Source: Arenicellales bacterium (GTDB lineage Bacteria > Pseudomonadota > Gammaproteobacteria > Arenicellales > JAJDZL01). Taken from it: a stretch of DNA of 64,000 bases. Positions within the stretch are counted from its first letter, which is position 1; each line of letters starts with the position of its first letter. Below are positions 16,792 through 47,247 of the stretch, piece after piece. Position numbers and translations under genes: made by a program. Below the pieces are notes generated by a model. That model had not been told where the DNA came from, ran no database searches, and saw nothing but the letters and a program-made list of their open reading frames with translations. Location: contig CBDAUJ010000002.1 of assembly GCA_965200545.1 (NCBI GenBank), forward strand, positions 1,224,850 through 1,288,849, in the 5' to 3' direction.

Positions 16792-16878
16792 GCCGAGGTG
16801 GCGAAATTGGCAGACGCGCTAGCTTCAGGTGCTAGTGGAGGAAACTCCGTGGAGGTTCAAGTCCTCTCCTCGGCACCA
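16792..16878 (+). tRNA. tRNA-Leu (anticodon CAG), type II with long variable arm and encoded CCA
   Basis: Acceptor stem GCCGAGG/CCTCGGC. Anticodon stem CTAGC/GCTAG with loop TTCAGGT. Variable arm TGGAGGAAACTCCGT. T-loop TTCAAGT. 3' end ACCA. Confidence 0.93.
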
Positions 16879-35539: not shown

Positions 35540-35955
35540 GTGCAGATTGGGATGGTTTCAGAAATTTCGTTGCTTTGGCGGACGCAAAGCAGATCGCCAG
35601 GACGGAATTGCGCGAGCGATCGGAATTGGCGGGTTTTGTGGGAATTCAAAACGCTTTCGATTGCCTGCCGATGCCAAGCATCAGATGATTGAGCTGCCAT
35701 GCATTCCTGTGCAGCAGTGCAATCCGCAGCAGCTCGCATCGTCTCGAATTCGCTTGATAGCAGGCCTGATTGACAGCTGTTCTCCTCATCTGGACGATGA
35801 CTATTTCGCAGCATGCATCTTTAGACTCTTGTCGCTGTTCGCAGTGCTCGCTCATTTTGCCATAAAAACTAGTGATGATTTGGCGATAATACTTCGGTCT
35901 GCAGTCCGCGCCCGCGCGAGACTGACGCGAAAAACAATGATGGAGGATTAGAAAA

Positions 35956-37110
35956 ATGAAATTGAAAACAGCCTTGGTCGGCCTGGCTGCGTGCGCCGCT
36001 ACCTCGATCGCAGGTGCGGCAGAAATGAAAACTGAAATTGGCGCTGGTGAAGGTGCAGTGGACATTATCGCCTGGCCCGGCTACATCGAACGCGGCGAGA
36101 CGAGCCCAGATTTCGATTGGGTTACCAGTTTTGAATCTGCGACTGGGTGCGAGGTGCGGGTCAAAACCGCCAATACGTCGGACGAGATGGTGGCGCTGAT
36201 GAATGAAGGGGGCTTTGATCTGGTCACCGCTTCGGGCGATGCATCGCTTCGACTCATCGCCGGAAAACGCGTGCAGCCGGTCAACATCGATCTGATTCCA
36301 AGCTGGAATACAGTCGACGATCGGCTCAAGAACGCACCTTGGCACACGGTAGATGGCGTTCATTACGGCACCCCGTACATGTGGGGACCGAATGTATTGA
36401 TGTACAACACAGATGTCTTTCCGGAACCGCCCCAAAGCTGGGAAGTGGTGTTCAGAGAGATGGCCTTGCCGGACGGGGTTTCCAACAAAGGACGTGTGCA
36501 AGCCTACGATGGTCCGATTCATGTGGCTGATGCTGCCTTGTTTCTGATGCACCATCGCCCGGAACTTGGGATCACCAGTCCCTACGAACTGAATGCAGAA
36601 CAGTATGCGGTAGTGCTCGATTTACTTCGCGAGCAGCGGAAGATTGTGGGTCGCTACTGGCATAACGCTTTCATTCAAATGGATGATTTCACGAATGAAG
36701 GCGTAGTCGCATCAGGCTCGTGGCCTTTCCAGGTCAATCTGCTGCAGTCCCAAGAACTTCCGATCGCTTCGACTATCCCGGTTGAAGGCGCAACCGGCTG
36801 GTCTGACACGACGATGATGCATGTAGATGCCGCACATCCAAATTGCGCCTATATGTGGATGGAGCATACCCTGTCGTCGAATCTCCAAAGTGATTTGTCA
36901 GTTTGGTTTGGTGCGGTGCCGCCGGTATTGGCTGCCTGCACGGACGGTCGCGGCATGCAGACCGCTGAAGGCTGTGCGAAAAATGGACTGAATGATTTCG
37001 ACAAGATCAAATTCTGGACCACTCCGGTGTCGAATTGTCCCAGTCAGGGAGAATGTGTGCCATACTACCGCTGGGTATCCGATTACATTGGTGTGATTGG
37101 CGGCCGCTGA
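35956..37110 (+). CDS. ABC transporter periplasmic substrate-binding protein (PotD/PotF-like)
   Basis: Signal peptide MKLKTALVGLAACAATSIAGAA, followed by a family 1 solute-binding fold. Confidence 0.85.
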   Translation: MKLKTALVGLAACAATSIAGAAEMKTEIGAGEGAVDIIAWPGYIERGETSPDFDWVTSFESATGCEVRVKTANTSDEMVALMNEGGFDLVTASGDASLRLIAGKRVQPVNIDLIPSWNTVDDRLKNAPWHTVDGVHYGTPYMWGPNVLMYNTDVFPEPPQSWEVVFREMALPDGVSNKGRVQAYDGPIHVADAALFLMHHRPELGITSPYELNAEQYAVVLDLLREQRKIVGRYWHNAFIQMDDFTNEGVVASGSWPFQVNLLQSQELPIASTIPVEGATGWSDTTMMHVDAAHPNCAYMWMEHTLSSNLQSDLSVWFGAVPPVLAACTDGRGMQTAEGCAKNGLNDFDKIKFWTTPVSNCPSQGECVPYYRWVSDYIGVIGGR

Positions 37111-37203
37111 GACCGTACAAGCACTATCGAATCGTCTCCGATTTGCTGCCGCTGGCCAACAATTGCGAGCGGCAGCAAAGACTTTGCACCCGAGCCTGAC
37201 TGA

Positions 37204-38196
37204 ATGGTTGCTGCAGTTCTGTTTAATCAGGTTACGCGAAAGTTCAGTAGCTTTGCCGCTGTCGACTGTATTGACCTTGAAATACAAGAAGGTGAGTTTT
37301 TTGCTCTTCTGGGGCCATCCGGTTCTGGCAAGACAACCTGCTTGCGTCTGATTTCTGGCATCGATCGCCCGACATCAGGCCGAATCGAGATATTTGGCGC
37401 CCGTTGCGACGATATTCCGCCCAACCGACGGCCTGTCAACACAGTTTTTCAGGATTATGCGCTTTTTCCGCATCTGAAAGTCATTGACAATGTTGCCTAC
37501 AGCCTGCTGGTCAAAGGTGTGCCAAAAAAGGAGCGTCACCATGAAGCTGAACGCCTTTTGGAACTGGTCAAGCTCGGTGGTTTTGGCGGGCGCTCGCCTG
37601 CGCAGCTGTCAGGCGGCCAAAAACAGCGAGTCGCTTTGGCGCGGGCGCTGATCAACAAGCCGCGTATTCTGCTGCTTGACGAACCGCTTGGTGCATTGGA
37701 CCTGAAGCTGCGCGAGCAGATGCAGGAAGAACTCAAGTCCCTGCAGCAATCTATCGGTATCACATTTATTTTTGTCACGCATGACCAGAATGAGGCTTTA
37801 TCGATGTCGAATCGTATTGCGATCGTCAACGGCGGCCGGATCGTGCAGGTCGATTCGCCGCAGGAACTTTATCGCCGGCCCAGAACGCGGTTCGTGGCAG
37901 AATTTGTAGGTTCGTCGAATATCTTGCCCCCAGGCTTGAGTGATGCTGCCGGCGGTGCGAGAAAGTGGTCAAGTCTGCGGCCTGAATCGATTTCACTCGC
38001 TGCGCCCGGCGCTGGGCGCATCGATGGCATGGTCAAGTCGCATCGCTTCTTAGGCGCTGTGAGCCGCACTGTTGTCGCAGTCGCTGACGGGGAGATTCAG
38101 GTTGATCTCAGCGCTGCGGGCGAGTTGCCTGACATTGGCGCCGCAGTGTCCTTGAGCTGGGCATCAGCTGCACTCCACGCGATGCAAGACGAATGA
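37204..38196 (+). CDS. ABC transporter ATP-binding protein (PotA-like)
   Basis: Walker A GPSGSGKTT, signature LSGGQKQRVALARAL, Walker B LLLDEPLGALD. Confidence 0.92.
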   Translation: MVAAVLFNQVTRKFSSFAAVDCIDLEIQEGEFFALLGPSGSGKTTCLRLISGIDRPTSGRIEIFGARCDDIPPNRRPVNTVFQDYALFPHLKVIDNVAYSLLVKGVPKKERHHEAERLLELVKLGGFGGRSPAQLSGGQKQRVALARALINKPRILLLDEPLGALDLKLREQMQEELKSLQQSIGITFIFVTHDQNEALSMSNRIAIVNGGRIVQVDSPQELYRRPRTRFVAEFVGSSNILPPGLSDAAGGARKWSSLRPESISLAAPGAGRIDGMVKSHRFLGAVSRTVVAVADGEIQVDLSAAGELPDIGAAVSLSWASAALHAMQDE

Positions 38197-41091: not shown

Positions 41092-41764
41092 TCAGGTGCT
41101 ATCGCAGCCCAATGCCATTCTCGCTTCGGCGTGCGTATGCTTGGGGTGATCGTCCAAGGTCTGGGCCAGATTGCTTTGCCCGCACAGACAGTTGCGGACA
41201 TCAAAAGGGGTGCGGGGGCTGATCGAGAAGCACCCGGTGCTGCCGCTGAGAATGTTGGTATTCGCAGGCGTGTAGGTTCCGCCCGTCATGAAACACAGCG
41301 TGTTGATTGGATTGGCCAGTCCAAGCCCTGTCACATCCGCATAGTAAATGGCGGTATAGGGCGTTTTGGCGGCAACGGAGATGTTGTTGACTACTCTGGC
41401 CACCGCGTTTGTCGACGTGACCGTCCCTAAATCTGTTTCACTGACCTGGGTTCCTGTTTTGCTGTTGATCACCCGCAGTTTCAGGGGAAATTCGCTAACC
41501 GAGGAATCGCCGCCAAGCCGCCCCCTCAAGAATGAGTAGGTAACGCCAAAGAAGTTATTCGTGAAAATGCCCTGCATGCCCGCGCCGTTTATCACGCTGA
41601 GATTGATCGCAAGATGGTTGCCATCAATATTATGGACATGGCCGCCCCCGCAGGCGGGCTGGCCGACCAGTCCCGGCGCGGCCATCAGCAAGGCCGCCAG
41701 CGCGGCGGCAAGTGCCGTTAATCTAGCGAGTCGGGGGGGGGAATCAGCCTATTGGATTGTTTCA
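41092..41764 (-). CDS. Putative secreted protein A, reading frame broken at a 9-nt G/C run inside the signal-peptide region
   Basis: A GGAG RBS and the ATG at 41764 encode MKQSNRLIPPP, then hit TAA. With 10 (or 7) C residues the frame would continue as ...RLARLTALAAALAALLMAAPGLVGQPACGGG into the 199-aa ORF 41092..41691. Confidence 0.65.
41732..41740. repeat. G9 (C9 on the coding strand) homopolymer, candidate slipped-strand switch
   Basis: Read directly: gagtcGGGGGGGGGaatcag. It begins 24 nt after the ATG of protein A. Confidence 0.9.
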
Positions 41765-42085: not shown

Positions 42086-43241
42086 ATGGAGAGGTCAAGA
42101 CTATATCCCTCCGCACTATATGCGGCGTTTGCGATCGCTGGTTGCGCCGAACAAGTGTGTTGTGACTTACGGTCAGCGCCGAAGTGGCTAAACGACCCTG
42201 ATTACCCGATATGTGCAAAGAGTATGAGCCTGATGCCCTGGTGGCCGCCGGTCAGGACATCTTCGTTCGAGATTATCTGGAAAGTCAATCGATAGCGAAG
42301 CTGAGAAGTTTCGTTGGGAATCATTTAACTTTCGTGATCGACGAGGCGCAGCATGTGCGTGATATTGGCTTGAACCTGAAACTGATTGTTGATCACATTC
42401 CTGATATTTCGGTTGTCGCAACGGAATTATCTTCGTTTGGATTGGGACATGCAGCTGGTACGCCGCTGACTGGTTGCAAGCATACACTTGTTTTGTCGCT
42501 ACTGGAACAATCGGAAATTCAGGTGCGGAAGTCACGCCATGAAACAGCTTCGAATCTTGAAGCTCGCCGGATTTACGGAGCCTATCCAGAGGTTGTTCTC
42601 AAAGAATCAAATCAAGAGCGTGAATTGTATTTGCAGGAATTGATTGATTCATATCTGCTCAAGGATATTCTGCAAGCCGGTGCGGTACGGCTGACCGACA
42701 AGCTGCTGCGTCTGCTGCAGCCAATCGCTTTTCAAATTGGAAAGCAGGTTTCTCTGACTGAATTAGGCTAGCAGCTTGGCATGAGCAAGAATTCGGCTGA
42801 ACGCTGTCTGAATTTGCTGGAGAACACTTTTGTCCTTTACAGCCGCAGCGTTTTCAGCCGCAACTTGCGCAAAGAAATTTCAAAAAGTCGGAGATATTAT
42901 TTTTATGACAATCGCATTCGCAATGCGCCGATGCGTAATTTCAATGTACTTTCGCTGCGTGATGATGTCGGTGCTTTATGGGAGAATTACGTGATGGCAG
43001 AGCGATTGAAGAGAAATTTGTACTTGGGATATCGAATAGAGAGTTTTTTCTGGCGAACTCATGATCGTCAGGAGATTATCTCATGGAGGAAGAGGGCGGA
43101 TGCATTGCGGCCGCTGAAATGAAGAGGTCCCGACAGCCAGCGTACAAAAGACTGGCGGCTTGGGCCAAAGCCTATCCTGAATGTGAGTATCAGATTGTTC
43201 ATCCGGACAATTATCTGGATTTCATTTGTATTGAAAATTAA
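42086..43241 (+). pseudogene. AAA ATPase with DUF4143 (AAA_14 family), multiply disrupted
   Basis: The Walker A reads GQRRSG*TTL, with TAA at 42189..42191 in place of the Lys codon. A frameshift follows shortly after. There is an in-frame TAG at 42769..42771 and another frameshift near 43085. Family motifs FVIDEAQHV, YFYDNRIRNA and the C-terminal ...AAEMKRS... are still readable. Confidence 0.8.
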
Positions 43242-43371
43242 GCATGGGATCTATCTTCAAGCTCGCGCAATGTTCTTTCCGTCAAGTCTTGGCTCTGAGT
43301 ATTTCTCGTTGGTGAAGAGTGATATCTCACCCCTGAAAGCAACGCGATTATTTGAGGATAGGCAGTGAATT

Positions 43372-43380
43372 TGGCATAAT
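43372..43380 (+). promoter_or_regulatory. Candidate extended -10 element (TGGCATAAT) upstream of NTPase copy 1
   Basis: It lies within the roughly 85-bp upstream block that is duplicated before both paralogs. Confidence 0.3.
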
Positions 43381-43446
43381 CTGAGCTCTAGAAGGATATT
43401 TGCGCGAATAGTGAATGTTCTAACCGTTGAGCTGTAGCCGCCATTG

Positions 43447-44745
43447 ATGGAGCCGAGACCTTTTCCGAAACCTGTCCCTGCTGAGCCTCTTGGCGAGGTC
43501 GAGTGGCTTCAGCGGACGGATCGGGCCGAAGTGGGACGCGAGCCGTTCTTTTGCGGCCGTGATGCCGAATACGAGGTTTTTCAAAAAGCGGCGACTAGTC
43601 TTTTGTCAGGTCACGTTGGCGGTGGGACCATGATCTTCCAAGGGGCGCCCGGAGCGGGTAAGTCAGCACTGCTGCAAGAGTGCATGGAAGCGGTGCGCCG
43701 GCACTCGACGCCCCAGGAGCCGTGGGTGGCCGTGTCGGTTTCCGCGAGCGGCTTGAAATCGTCTCTGGAGGTGATTGCAGCCTTGGCCGATGCGGCCGAT
43801 GCGGAGAGCCGGCGGCTGTCTCGGCTCAGTTCAAGCGCGTCGAAACTGGAGCCTTTGGCGAATCTGGGCAAACGGCTTTATGATGAGCTGTCGCAGCGGG
43901 GCTTCTCGCTGGCGGGAGTTGCGGTCGGGGGCAAGAGCCAAACGGAGTCGGATGCCGAGGTGCTGCCGGCGGGACTGTTTCGCAATGCCGCGCCGCTGCT
44001 GGAGGATTTTCGCTTCGTCGTATTGGTCGATGAGGCGCAGAACACGCCGGTGCGTGAGAGGACGAAAGCCGTTCTTGACTGCTTGCACCGGGACCCGCAG
44101 GGGATTCATCTGGTGGCGGCGTTTTTTGGATTGGGCGATACTGAGGAGGTGCTGGGCGAGTGCGGACTGTCGCGGCTTGCGATTGGGCGGGTTGTGAATT
44201 TGGAACCGCTTTCCCTGGCCGATGCGGCCGGCTCATTCAGGCGCATGCTTGACACGTATTACGCTGGCAGCGATGCGGAAAAAGACACTTGGTCCGTCTC
44301 TTTGGCCGAGTTGTCACAGGGCTGGCCGCAGCATATCAGCGGTATCGGCTATGGTGCCGGCGCAGTGATTCGTGAAAATCATGGGAAGCTGACGCGCTCA
44401 TGTCTTGCGAAAGCGTTGGAGCAGGGCGTTGAGCAGAAAAATGAATATTATGAAAAGCGCCTTATAGCTGGCAAGTATCCACCTTGGGTATACAAGCAGA
44501 TAGCGCTGAAAGCGGCAAAAAATCAAGGCCAGCTTGCGGGCATTATTACGTATGAGGAGGTGTATAGCCTGACTGAATCGGTTCGAAAAATGCAAAACCA
44601 AACTGTTGGCGAGTTTGTCACGACTGCCTTGCATGCCGGTCTGCTGGCGCCGGTGGACGGTCTGCCCTTTCACTATTGCTTTCCGATTCCGTCTTTGGGT
44701 GATTATCTGAGAGCGCTGCCGGTCGCGTTGCCCGATTCAGCCTGA
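43447..44745 (+). CDS. P-loop NTPase, AAA+/ORC-Cdc6- or STAND-like (AAA_16/22-like), paralog 1
   Basis: 432-aa product from the ATG at 43447. FCGRDAEYEVF precedes Walker A GAPGAGKSALL. Walker B is FRFVVLVDEAQ. The C-terminal region is helical and possibly a winged helix. Confidence 0.75.
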   Translation: MEPRPFPKPVPAEPLGEVEWLQRTDRAEVGREPFFCGRDAEYEVFQKAATSLLSGHVGGGTMIFQGAPGAGKSALLQECMEAVRRHSTPQEPWVAVSVSASGLKSSLEVIAALADAADAESRRLSRLSSSASKLEPLANLGKRLYDELSQRGFSLAGVAVGGKSQTESDAEVLPAGLFRNAAPLLEDFRFVVLVDEAQNTPVRERTKAVLDCLHRDPQGIHLVAAFFGLGDTEEVLGECGLSRLAIGRVVNLEPLSLADAAGSFRRMLDTYYAGSDAEKDTWSVSLAELSQGWPQHISGIGYGAGAVIRENHGKLTRSCLAKALEQGVEQKNEYYEKRLIAGKYPPWVYKQIALKAAKNQGQLAGIITYEEVYSLTESVRKMQNQTVGEFVTTALHAGLLAPVDGLPFHYCFPIPSLGDYLRALPVALPDSA

Positions 44746-45001
44746 GCCGTGTATGTCTGAGACCGACACGAGTGATCAGAATCAAGTTTTTCCTTTGACC
44801 GGATATCACCGCTTAAGGTGATTGGCTAATTGGCTGGATTCTGGGACTGGCCGCTGCTTCGAGGCGCGGTGAGTCTGAAAAACGATGCGGTACCAGTGAT
44901 TGCTGTTGAGACCGAGTTTCAGACAGGTTGCTCCACCAGTTTCTTCATGGCAAGCGGTAAAGAACAAAACCACACAAATATCTGGCGATAGCCAGTGAAT
45001 T

Positions 45002-45010
45002 TGGCATAAT
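45002..45010 (+). promoter_or_regulatory. Candidate extended -10 element (TGGCATAAT) upstream of NTPase copy 2
   Basis: Same conserved block as at 43372..43380. Confidence 0.3.
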
Positions 45011-45077
45011 CTGAGCTGTCGAAGGATGTTTTCGCGAATATAGCGAATGTTCCAGCTGTTGAGCTGTAGATGCCTGC

Positions 45078-46376
45078 ATGAACCCCAGACCTTTTCCGAA
45101 ACCTGCCCCCGCTGAGCCTCTTGACGAGGCTGTCTGGCTAGACCAAACCGATCGGGCCGAAGTGGGCCGCGAGCCGTTCTTTTGCGGCCGTGATGCCGAA
45201 TACGAGGTTTTTCAAAAAGCGGCGACCAGTCTTTTGTCAGGTCGCGTTGGCGGCGGGACCATGATCTTCCAAGGGGCGCCCGGAGCGGGCAAGTCAGCGC
45301 TTCTGCAAGAATGCATGGAGGCAGTCCGCCGGCACTCGACTCCCCAAGAGCCGTGGGTAGCTGCAGCGGTCGAGTTCAATGACTTGAAATCCCCTCGATC
45401 GGTAATGGCTGCTCTGATTCATGCTGCCGATGCGGAGACTCAGCGGCTCTCAGCACTTGTTTCAGATGACTCAAAAGTGAAGCATTTGGTGAATTTAGGC
45501 AAAAGACTTTATGACGAGCTGTCGCGGCGAGGTTTCTCATTCGCAGGCGTTTCCATCGGCGGGGAGAGTCAGACCGAACATAATACTGAGATATCGCCAG
45601 CAGAGCTGTTTCGCAATGCCGCGCCGCTGCTGGAGGATTTTCGCTTCGTCGTATTTGTCGATGAGGCGCAGAACACGCCGGTGCATGAGATGACGAAAGC
45701 CGTTCTTGACTGCTTGCATCGGGCTCCGCAAGGGGTTTGCCTGGTGGCGGCCTTTTTCGGATTGAGCGACACAAAAGACATATTGAGGAAATGCGGACTA
45801 TCAAGACTTGCGAGTGGCCGGGTGGTCAATTTAGAGCTTCTTTCGAAAAATCAGTCCAAGGGATCGTTCACGCGCATGCTGAACGCTTACTATCGCGGAA
45901 CGCGAGAAGAGAAAAGCTTTTGGGCTGAAACACTGGCTGAGCTGTCGCAAGGCTGGCCGCAGCATATCAATCGAGTTGGCGTGGCCGCCGGGCGCGTTCT
46001 TAGCTCCAATGGCCGGGTGTTGGAACGTGTTCTGCTTGATAGAGTTTTGGAATTGGGTGTTGAGCAGAAAAACAAATATTATGCGCAAAGGCTGGAGGCG
46101 GGCGGATACCCGCCTTGGGTATACAAGCAGATAGCGCTGAAAGCCGCAAAAAATCAAGGTCAGCTTTCTGGTATTGTTACTTTCGAGGAAGTTGACAGTT
46201 TGACTGAATCAGCTCGAAAAAATGAAAATCAAACTGCTGGCGAGCTTGTCGAGAGTGCCTTGCATGCCGGTCTGCTGGCGCCAGTGGACAGTCTGCCCTT
46301 TCACTATTGCTTTCCGATTCCGTCTTTGGGTGATTATCTGAGGGCGCTGCCAGTCGCACTGCCTGATTCTGCCTGA
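45078..46376 (+). CDS. P-loop NTPase, AAA+/ORC-Cdc6- or STAND-like, paralog 2
   Basis: 432-aa ORF with the same Walker A and B motifs. The N- and C-terminal blocks are nearly identical to paralog 1, and the central segments are diverged. Confidence 0.75.
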   Translation: MNPRPFPKPAPAEPLDEAVWLDQTDRAEVGREPFFCGRDAEYEVFQKAATSLLSGRVGGGTMIFQGAPGAGKSALLQECMEAVRRHSTPQEPWVAAAVEFNDLKSPRSVMAALIHAADAETQRLSALVSDDSKVKHLVNLGKRLYDELSRRGFSFAGVSIGGESQTEHNTEISPAELFRNAAPLLEDFRFVVFVDEAQNTPVHEMTKAVLDCLHRAPQGVCLVAAFFGLSDTKDILRKCGLSRLASGRVVNLELLSKNQSKGSFTRMLNAYYRGTREEKSFWAETLAELSQGWPQHINRVGVAAGRVLSSNGRVLERVLLDRVLELGVEQKNKYYAQRLEAGGYPPWVYKQIALKAAKNQGQLSGIVTFEEVDSLTESARKNENQTAGELVESALHAGLLAPVDSLPFHYCFPIPSLGDYLRALPVALPDSA

Positions 46377-46479
46377 GCCGCTGGATCTGCTGTGTGTTCG
46401 GGTCGACACTAAACTTTTTTGCCAATCGGAAAGTTCTGAATATTTTGGCTGAATGCCGCGTGATTGATGCACACCGCAT

Positions 46480-47247
46480 ATGGAATATTTCTCTGATCTG
46501 TCCAGAAAAACAGCCTTGATTACTGGGGCTTCTAGCGGTATCGGTCTGCATTTTGCGCACACTTTAGCCAATGCTGGCGCCAAAGTTATTCTGATTGCAA
46601 GACGAAAACAGCAGCTTGATCTTGCCGTTGCGCAAATCCAAAACCGCGGCGGAATTGCTGCGCGGGCAGTGATGGATGTTACGTCGAAAAGAAGTGTCGA
46701 TGCGGCTTTTGAGAGCGCAGGCAAAATCTTCGGTCGCATCGATGTAGTCATCAACAATGCTGGAATCGCTTCCGGCGGCAAGGCACTGGAGGTGTCTGAA
46801 AGTCAATGGGATCAGGTGATCGACACCAACCTTAAAGGCGTTTGGCTGGCGGCTCAGGCCGCGGCGCAAATGATGTCGGCTGACTGCCGCGGCGGATCGC
46901 TGATCAATATTGCGTCGATTTTGGGCATTCGCGTGATGGGCGGAGTCGTGCCCTACGCCGTCTCAAAAGCAGCTGTGGATCACCTCACACGGGTGCTGGC
47001 TTACGAGTGGGCAGTTCATGGCATTCGTGTCAACACGATCGCGCCGGGCTATGTGCTCACTGACATGAATCGCGCCTGGCTGCAGTCTCCGGCGGGCGAG
47101 AAGGTCAAGCATAAAATTCCCCAGCGCCGCTTCGGCAAAGTTCAGGACCTTGAGGGGCCGATGCTGCTGCTCGCTTCAGACGCATCTTCCTATATGACCG
47201 GTGCAACCATCGTGGTGGATGGCGGGCATTTGCAATCATCAATGTAA
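46480..47247 (+). CDS. SDR family oxidoreductase
   Basis: Motifs TGASSGIG, NNAG and YAVSKAA (YxxxK). Confidence 0.9.
   Translation: MEYFSDLSRKTALITGASSGIGLHFAHTLANAGAKVILIARRKQQLDLAVAQIQNRGGIAARAVMDVTSKRSVDAAFESAGKIFGRIDVVINNAGIASGGKALEVSESQWDQVIDTNLKGVWLAAQAAAQMMSADCRGGSLINIASILGIRVMGGVVPYAVSKAAVDHLTRVLAYEWAVHGIRVNTIAPGYVLTDMNRAWLQSPAGEKVKHKIPQRRFGKVQDLEGPMLLLASDASSYMTGATIVVDGGHLQSSM

Follow-up and report, generated by a model that had tools for sequence, protein, structure and literature searches.

The 64,000-nucleotide stretch of Arenicellales DNA analysed here (the window) carries two tandem genes, c1 and c2, whose 432-residue products are paralogs. They belong to a multi-copy family of compact AAA+ nucleoside triphosphatases (NTPases). 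Their sequences are probably mosaics assembled by homologous exchange, and the proteins would work as nucleotide-controlled switches. The earlier note on this DNA had described the two paralogs, with start codons 1631 nt apart, and quoted several of their peptide motifs, all of which are present in the open reading frames (ORFs). Both ORFs are intact and BLASTP aligns their products without gaps, with 324 identities over 432 positions (75%). The elements of the pair are the following.

43335..43446, + strand: upstream block of unit 1, common to unit 2 and to the syntenic ortholog
43447..44745, + strand: copy 1 (c1, protein P0003), ORF for a 432-aa solo AAA_16 / STAND-ORC-like NTPase
44746..44964, no strand: unique spacer of about 220 nt between the units, unlike both flanks and the ortholog locus in sequence
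44965..45077, + strand: upstream block of unit 2, with TGGCATAAT at 45002-45010
45078..46376, + strand: copy 2 (c2, protein P0001), ORF for the 432-aa paralog of c1

A repeat finder likewise detects the repeated units, in register and 1630-1632 nt apart, and the extent of the repeat, 1.4 kb at 76% nucleotide identity, rules out a chance origin. The same chromosomal site in the Arenicellales metagenome-assembled genome (MAG) OZ243928.1 (locus L001) holds a single copy, P0002, which is the nearest homolog and has 84% identity to c2; this syntenic ortholog is called o below. Three-way DNA alignment with L001 sets the left edge of the repeat unit at 43335 and 44965 and its right edge just past each stop codon. 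The two loci share the order ABC permeases, NTPase gene, SDR (short-chain dehydrogenase/reductase), acyl-CoA dehydrogenase and indolepyruvate-oxidoreductase-like gene. Another locus, L006, was dropped as a second syntenic genome because its permeases are non-orthologous at the DNA level. c1 starts with the ATG at 43447, next to an in-frame TTG at 43444, and no third family copy is found within the 64-kb window.

Conservation between c1 and c2 is blocky, as the earlier note had seen, and this pattern is statistically robust. Synonymous and nonsynonymous divergence (dS, dN) over the whole gene was estimated by the Nei-Gojobori method, the proportions of synonymous and nonsynonymous differences (pS, pN) were followed in sliding windows, and informative sites were compared three ways among c1, c2 and o. 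Along the gene pS ranges from about 0 to about 0.9, a variation of roughly 100-fold. For all three pairs, c1 with c2 included, third codon positions depart from randomness in a runs test (p<=0.0005), and the longest run of identical third positions between c1 and o covers 64 codons, compared with a maximum of 36 in 2000 permutations. The informative sites form a string with clean switches, in which c2 equals o at codons 2-25, c1 equals c2 at codons 25-80, c1 equals o at codons 85-245 and c2 equals o again at codons 250-432. The corresponding segments are these.

43519..43686, + strand (c2 counterpart 45150-45317): exchange tract at c1 codons ~25-80, c1 and c2 near-identical
43699..44181, + strand: exchange tract at c1 codons ~85-245, near-identical to the ortholog of a different genome
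45825..46373, + strand: c2 codons ~250-432, grouping with the ortholog

Within the first segment pS between c1 and c2 is 0.09 at codons 31-70, each copy lying about 0.5 from o, which indicates a recent conversion between the tandem copies. At codons 91-200 pS between c1 and o falls to 0.00-0.04 and c2 lies 0.5-0.8 from both. The c2 counterpart of this second tract is closest to two dispersed paralogs of the other genome, P0006 and P0008, with 84% identity over c2 residues 91-175 versus 60-62% to c1 and o. Since seven flanking ortholog genes of the window and L001 have a pS of 0.33-0.39 (0.18 for the adjacent SDR gene), the tract common to c1 and o must have arisen long after the two genomes separated. 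In the third segment pS is 0.05-0.2 between c2 and o, with c1 at 0.7-0.9 from both. Nucleotide identity to L001 is raised from about 45980 to about 47180 (0.93-0.98 versus a background of 0.88-0.90), a stretch that opens in the 3' third of c2 and extends into the SDR gene (window 46480-47247, L001 11403-12170), suggesting that a recombination tract between lineages reaches past the NTPase gene. The closest relative of c1 over residues 250-345 is P0004 (75%), and codons 226-270 of c1 have a pS of 0.27-0.43 to P0006/P0008 versus 0.74-0.9 to c2. P0006 and P0008, about 20 kb apart and inverted in OZ243928.1, are themselves identical in DNA over codons ~95-285 (about 570 nt) and diverged at both ends, with a pS of about 0.7 at the 5' end. 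Segmental exchange appears from these comparisons to be a general behaviour of the family. We read the blockiness as the record of repeated gene conversion and homologous exchange, in which the partners were the tandem copies themselves, dispersed paralogs and genes of related lineages. Exchange is required because constraint on the protein cannot erase synonymous differences, yet the conserved blocks have a pS near 0. Gene conversion, which the earlier note had put forward for the near-identical blocks, accounts for them by sliding pS, by the informative sites and by the runs test alike.

That note had also suggested, together with or instead of conversion, diversifying selection on putative recognition segments, an explanation of the divergent blocks in which the conserved blocks would simply reflect constraint. 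The segments that it named as variable do coincide with variable regions of the whole family, as established by entropy and windowed dN/dS (omega) in an alignment of 40 full-length copies. Residues 61-90, 181-250, 281-310 and 391-430 are constrained (low entropy, omega 0.1-0.4), and the hypervariable regions (omega 0.7-1.0) are residues 101-180 (a helical insertion and loop), 251-280 and 301-340 (lid and linker) and 341-390 (first half of the winged helix). Entropy is highest at 101-180, 301-340 and 341-390, which coincide with a surface insertion and a loop that is disordered in the structural model. These family-wide omega values are biased upward, since only pairs with unsaturated pS in a given window could be used. 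Between c1 and c2 the picture is another one: pN/pS is below 1 in every sliding window, and the divergent blocks are synonymously saturated (pS 0.6-0.9) with pN/pS of 0.3-0.55. As synonymous sites are there equally or more diverged, these blocks are older or imported sequence and not fast-evolving sequence. Over the whole gene, dS and dN/dS are 0.80 and 0.21 for c1 and c2, 0.52 and 0.24 for c1 and o, and 0.42 and 0.22 for c2 and o; ratios of about 0.2 indicate that both copies are under purifying selection. Selection as the source of the divergent blocks is improbable in view of this saturation, the near-zero pS of the conserved blocks, and the third-position clustering and three-way site pattern that demand exchange. 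Far less probable still is a recent tandem duplication that diverged in a clock-like way without recombination and under uneven constraint only. The units are in register, of equal length and free of indels, as that history would have it. It does not accommodate the 100-fold variation of pS, the nearest relative that shifts from segment to segment among c2, the ortholog and dispersed paralogs, or one tract far closer to the gene of another genome than the flanking orthologs are.

Each copy also has its own promoter-like block, as previously proposed. A repeat of about 85 bp had been reported before each gene; a shared block with TGGCATAAT is indeed found at both places, its size being about 110 nt (43336-43442 and 44966-45074, 77-83% identity). 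In unit 1, TGGCATAAT at 43372 is part of a sigma-70-like promoter with an extended -10 element, TTGAGG-17-TGgCATAAT (43352-43380). Unit 2 keeps TGGCATAAT, at 45002, and has a degraded -35-like hexamer. Since both copies retain the extended -10 promoter-like site, they are probably transcribed independently of each other. The block belongs to the duplicated unit, as only c1, c2 and the syntenic ortholog have it. Its interpretation as a family-wide regulatory or mobile element was rejected, the upstream regions of 20 other paralogs being unrelated, and a sigma-54 promoter reading of TGGCAT-N5-GAGC was dropped because the extended -10 sigma-70 element fits and the block is absent from other paralogs. 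The spacer and leader have no Rfam match and no notable fold (z-score -1.7).

Protein sequence analysis and structure prediction agree with the assignment of the pair, in the earlier note, to AAA+/STAND-like P-loop NTPases. AAA_16 (PF13191) is the sole Pfam model above threshold and only just so, with 33.4 bits for c1 and 38.6 for c2 over residues 35-218 (gathering threshold 32.6); AAA_22, NACHT, NB-ARC and nSTAND give weaker matches. The Walker A motif GAPGAGKS occupies residues 66-73 (nt 43642-43665 in c1) and the Walker B motif VDEAQ residues 194-198 (nt 44026-44040 in c1). Invariant in 42 family members are G66, P68, G69, G71, K72, D195, E196, R243, R248 and the triplet G292-W293-P294 (GWP), which lies between the predicted lid helices 276-290 and 294-309. 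H396, in helix 387-397 of the predicted winged helix, is conserved in at least 90%. STAND proteins are marked by a GxP motif in the lid and by a conserved His in their winged helix, and the equivalence of the residues in the present family is presumed. From an alignment of 42 family sequences, AlphaFold2 gives a model of c2 with a predicted local confidence (pLDDT) of 87.3 and a predicted template-modelling score (pTM) of 0.87, in which disorder is confined to loop 152-170. The predicted chain begins with strand 1, the P-loop, a helix and strand 2; two long helices (100-150) and a loop follow, then another helix and the Walker B strand (VDEAQ). After strands 4 and 5 come the lid, made of three helices and carrying GWP, a long linker helix and the winged helix (~345-425). 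No extra domain that could act as sensor repeat, effector or output is found in c1, c2 or ten longer relatives.

Foldseek against the Protein Data Bank (PDB) gives its best matches at E values from 1e-9 to 1e-6, to 2qen, 2fna, Orc1/Cdc6 and NLR proteins. The best whole-chain matches are 2qen (E 2e-9) and 2fna (E 2e-8), with target-normalised template-modelling (TM) scores of 0.58-0.61. Further hits are to archaeal and eukaryotic Orc1/Cdc6, chains of plant NLR resistosomes (including their NB-ARC), TnsC and RdrA. The two nearest folds, the archaeal Walker-type/AAA+ ATPases PABY2304 (2qen) and SSO1545 (2fna), which we take to be members of PF01637 (ATPase_2, or Arch_ATPase), have the same solo P-loop domain, helical lid and C-terminal winged helix and a similar size. 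They differ from the present proteins in sequence (only 14-16% identity), and the present family is bacterial with a longer, variable helical insertion before Walker B. The PF01637 model itself matches neither c1 nor c2 at E<=1 and gives E 0.005 in one distant relative. Families of the PF01637 type have many paralogs per genome; we know of no function for them. In AAA_16 and STAND proteins (MalT/LAL, NB-ARC, NACHT) a nucleotide-binding domain (NBD) is likewise followed by a helical domain with a GxP-type motif, of which GWP is the candidate equivalent here, and by a winged helix, but the present proteins comprise only the core of about 430 residues and lack sensor repeats (TPR, WD40, LRR), effector and helix-turn-helix output. 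Orc1/Cdc6 proteins, among the top fold matches, have in common the C-terminal winged helix and the helical insertion after strand 2, a feature typical of the initiator/ORC clade; TM scores are only 0.4-0.5 with a large rmsd, and the present genes are bacterial, in many copies per genome and without link to a replication origin. Matches by sequence to this group are restricted to the P-loop region, with NCBIfam TIGR02928 (Orc1/Cdc6) at 18.8 and 17.4 bits versus a cutoff of 181.3 and ORC1 at E 0.01 in a PDB profile search. As modelled, the protein is the bare NBD-lid-winged-helix core common to Arch_ATPase, Orc1/Cdc6 and STAND proteins.

The family is small. An exhaustive profile search of 1.84 billion cluster representatives gives 1390 matches at E<=1e-3, 979 at <=1e-10 and 119 at <=1e-30, and a word-indexed search retrieves 379 relatives with many distinct paralogs per contig. 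Among the top 120 matches, five lie on the 1.43-Mb contig of the window and up to eight on other contigs; several paralogs less than 90% identical co-occur on one contig, and OZ243928.1 has at least nine family copies. In species-representative genomes the closer relatives belong to MAGs labelled Arenicellales (including Candidatus Poriferihabitaceae), Pseudohongiella and Pseudomonadales, and a tier at 25-30% identity includes Rhodothermales, Paracoccaceae, Thalassobaculaceae, Flavobacteriaceae and others. The bacteria that carry the family seem to be sponge and coral symbionts of several phyla, a habitat deduced from record titles only. No relatives are found in IMG/VR contigs, INPHARED phages or PLSDB plasmids, the source databases give the protein no name, and no description of the family was found in the literature searched. 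PADLOC, NCBIfam and PHROGs likewise provide no convincing match, in line with the absence of a named system in the earlier note.

Tandem arrays of diverged paralogs occur at 12 or more other loci, with adjacent copies mostly 65-88% identical. The Rhodothermales contig OZ244061.1 has a four-copy array with a period of about 1578 nt (L046, 5241-11152), in which identity is 96% between copies 1 and 3, 94% between copies 2 and 4 and 77-81% between adjacent ones; a two-gene unit was therefore duplicated there. A copy on chromosome 2 of the Alphaproteobacteria MAG OZ219747.1 (L027) has 53% identity to c2, like many gammaproteobacterial paralogs, compared with 25-30% for other alphaproteobacterial relatives, which suggests horizontal transfer across classes. 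Clustered, recombining families of immune-receptor genes, such as plant NLR clusters, likewise combine arrays of diverged paralogs with an exchange of segments, among neighbouring and dispersed copies, that yields mosaic genes. The likeness is an analogy of evolutionary mode, as no positive selection, effector or immune function is shown for the present family.

Genomic contexts are varied. All ORFs of at least 100 aa were clustered in 79 loci, and 138 immediate neighbours were scanned with Pfam and PADLOC. No conserved partner gene emerges, the only recurrent items in the 79 loci being the family itself, antisense shadow ORFs and generic ABC ATPases, and no Pfam or PADLOC family is shared by more than three of the 138 neighbours. 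The surroundings range from an island with type I restriction-modification, a PIN toxin and ThsB-TIR, to ankyrin-repeat and giant fn3/Calx-beta proteins, to DUF4143 ATPases and transposase remnants, to housekeeping genes. On the enrichment in defence islands that the earlier note proposed to survey, the picture is mixed, with some copies in restriction-modification/toxin-antitoxin islands and immediate neighbours that are heterogeneous. Searches of PADLOC-DB 2.0 do not place the family in a defence system, there being no significant model match and no recurrent partner among the 138 neighbours. The island just mentioned lies at ~2.19-2.21 Mb of OZ243928.1 (L080, 8001-9275; L081, 8001-10638), bracketed by three family copies in inverted arrangement of which P0006 and P0008 are the outer ones. 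It encodes type I restriction-modification HsdR, HsdM and HsdS, the PIN toxin, UDG, transposases and the ThsB-TIR gene, and recombination between the inverted conversion partners could also flip it as a whole. At L084 (1-17341; contig ctg6905l, 2.23 Mb) a tandem pair 77% identical is flanked on either side by a giant fn3/Calx-beta/PKD protein (more than 2600 aa); these two are paralogs, of a kind regarded as host-interaction proteins. At L082 a family copy adjoins a 602-aa ankyrin-repeat protein and a DUF4143 ATPase. DUF4143 ATPases are found within 10 kb of the family in eight other loci, and transposases of insertion sequences (IS) near a few arrays and loci. The pair of the window also has such a neighbour, in a segment absent from the other genome:

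40163..43334, no strand: segment of 3172 nt missing from L001, abutting the left edge of unit 1 exactly

This segment carries a broken AAA_14/DUF4143 ATPase gene (42211-43122, as 42211-42771 plus 42781-43122) and a further ORF on the reverse strand (41092-41691) without family match, with no other recognisable gene; the L001 junction reads ...GATGTACAGA / AAGCA....

We privilege the hypothesis that these proteins, composed of a P-loop NBD in which a long and variable helical insertion separates strand 2 from Walker B, a GWP lid and a winged helix, act as ATP/ADP-controlled switches of the STAND/ORC type that would cycle between nucleotide states. The variable surfaces (insertion ~100-180, lid/linker 251-340, winged helix 341-390) would set specificity for a ligand or nucleic acid, and recombination among paralogs would reshuffle these variable modules into a repertoire. 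As no effector or partner is encoded, output would come through oligomerisation, DNA binding or a partner acting in trans. A role in sensing, during genetic conflict or defence or in host-associated life, is our best guess, a tentative extension of this hypothesis that we hold to be somewhat doubtful. The same architecture could instead serve ATP-dependent DNA-binding regulators or initiators, Orc1/Cdc6- or MalT-like, each acting on local targets without any part in conflict or defence. Orc1/Cdc6 is among the best folds, including DNA-bound structures, the weak sequence matches are to ORC1 and TIGR02928, and in the window and L001 the gene lies directly upstream of an SDR/acyl-CoA dehydrogenase operon and is co-oriented with it. 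Paralog neighbourhoods, however, have no operon type in common, and copy number and tandem arrays are atypical of dedicated regulators. The lid has GWP and not the Arg-containing sensor-2 motif of Orc1/Cdc6, and the near-invariant His396 sits in the most conserved part of the winged helix, where the conserved His of STAND proteins would contact nucleotide and not DNA. We regard such regulators or initiators as unlikely. More unlikely again is a link to a mobile element, the gene being its cargo or encoding its helper ATPase (TniB/TnsC/MuB-like), with a copy number that reflects transposition. Walker B with DEAQN and the AAA_22 matches resemble TniB-type ATPases, TnsC is among the fold matches, PHROGs gives a marginal match to PHROG 296 ('DNA transposition protein'), IS transposases lie near some arrays, unit edges are sharp and the 3.2-kb insertion stands exactly at the left edge. 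These similarities of fold and PHROG are weak, no transposase or integrase is consistently adjacent, the unit edges have neither terminal repeats nor target duplications, upstream regions of paralogs are unrelated, and the family is missing from the viral, phage and plasmid collections searched.

Several points weigh against the hypothesis of exchanging switch proteins with a sensing role. Ordinary genes make up most of the immediate neighbours, with defence or mobile genes in the minority, and the PADLOC-DB 2.0 match is only marginal (mad8, E 2e-3 to 4e-3). The upward-biased family-wide omega of 0.7-1.0 would fit relaxed or possibly diversifying evolution and proves neither. The three sequences are compatible with two orders of events: an ancestral pair may have been reduced by unequal crossover to the single chimera of the other genome, or a duplication may have been followed by imported patches. 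All genomes are metagenome-assembled; assembly chimerism is an unlikely source of the tracts, because they measure 100-500 bp and long reads, assuming that these are long-read assemblies, would span several of them.

Gene conversion within a tandem pair is nothing unusual in evolution, and the features of note are those of the family, namely its expansion in apparent sponge and coral symbiont MAGs, its recurrent arrays and a pervasive segmental exchange that extends between lineages. If the proposed sensing role is correct, a bare NBD-lid-winged-helix switch with no sensor or effector fused to it can be maintained as a repertoire of many diversified copies, and exchange among paralogs and between related, co-occurring symbionts is its main source of variation. 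A bolder proposal, which we think unlikely as a whole, is a repertoire of minimal STAND-type receptors confined to sponge and coral symbionts, diversified by recombination and spread across phyla by horizontal transfer. Conversion of segments within arrays, with dispersed copies and between co-resident lineages would keep supplying new specificities, against phages or mobile DNA or for interaction with the host, with output in trans or by oligomerisation alone. Such a repertoire would be a bacterial counterpart of clustered NLR evolution, cut down to the bare switch module. The family would seem to mark genomes adapted to sponge and coral hosts, as far as habitat can be taken from record titles only, and appears in MAGs labelled Arenicellales, Pseudohongiella, Rhodothermales, Paracoccaceae and Flavobacteriaceae. 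For annotation, the lesson is to test blocky conservation of paralogs at synonymous sites before selection is invoked.

Two other observations concern the rest of the window. Synteny with L001 breaks at 35549-38104 (L001 6970-7828), where an IS1595-type transposase fragment in L001 stands opposite about 2.5 kb of different sequence in the window, in which the ABC transporter operon begins. A tRNA-Leu (CAG) at 16792-16878 is the sole tRNA and the sole Rfam match in the 64 kb.

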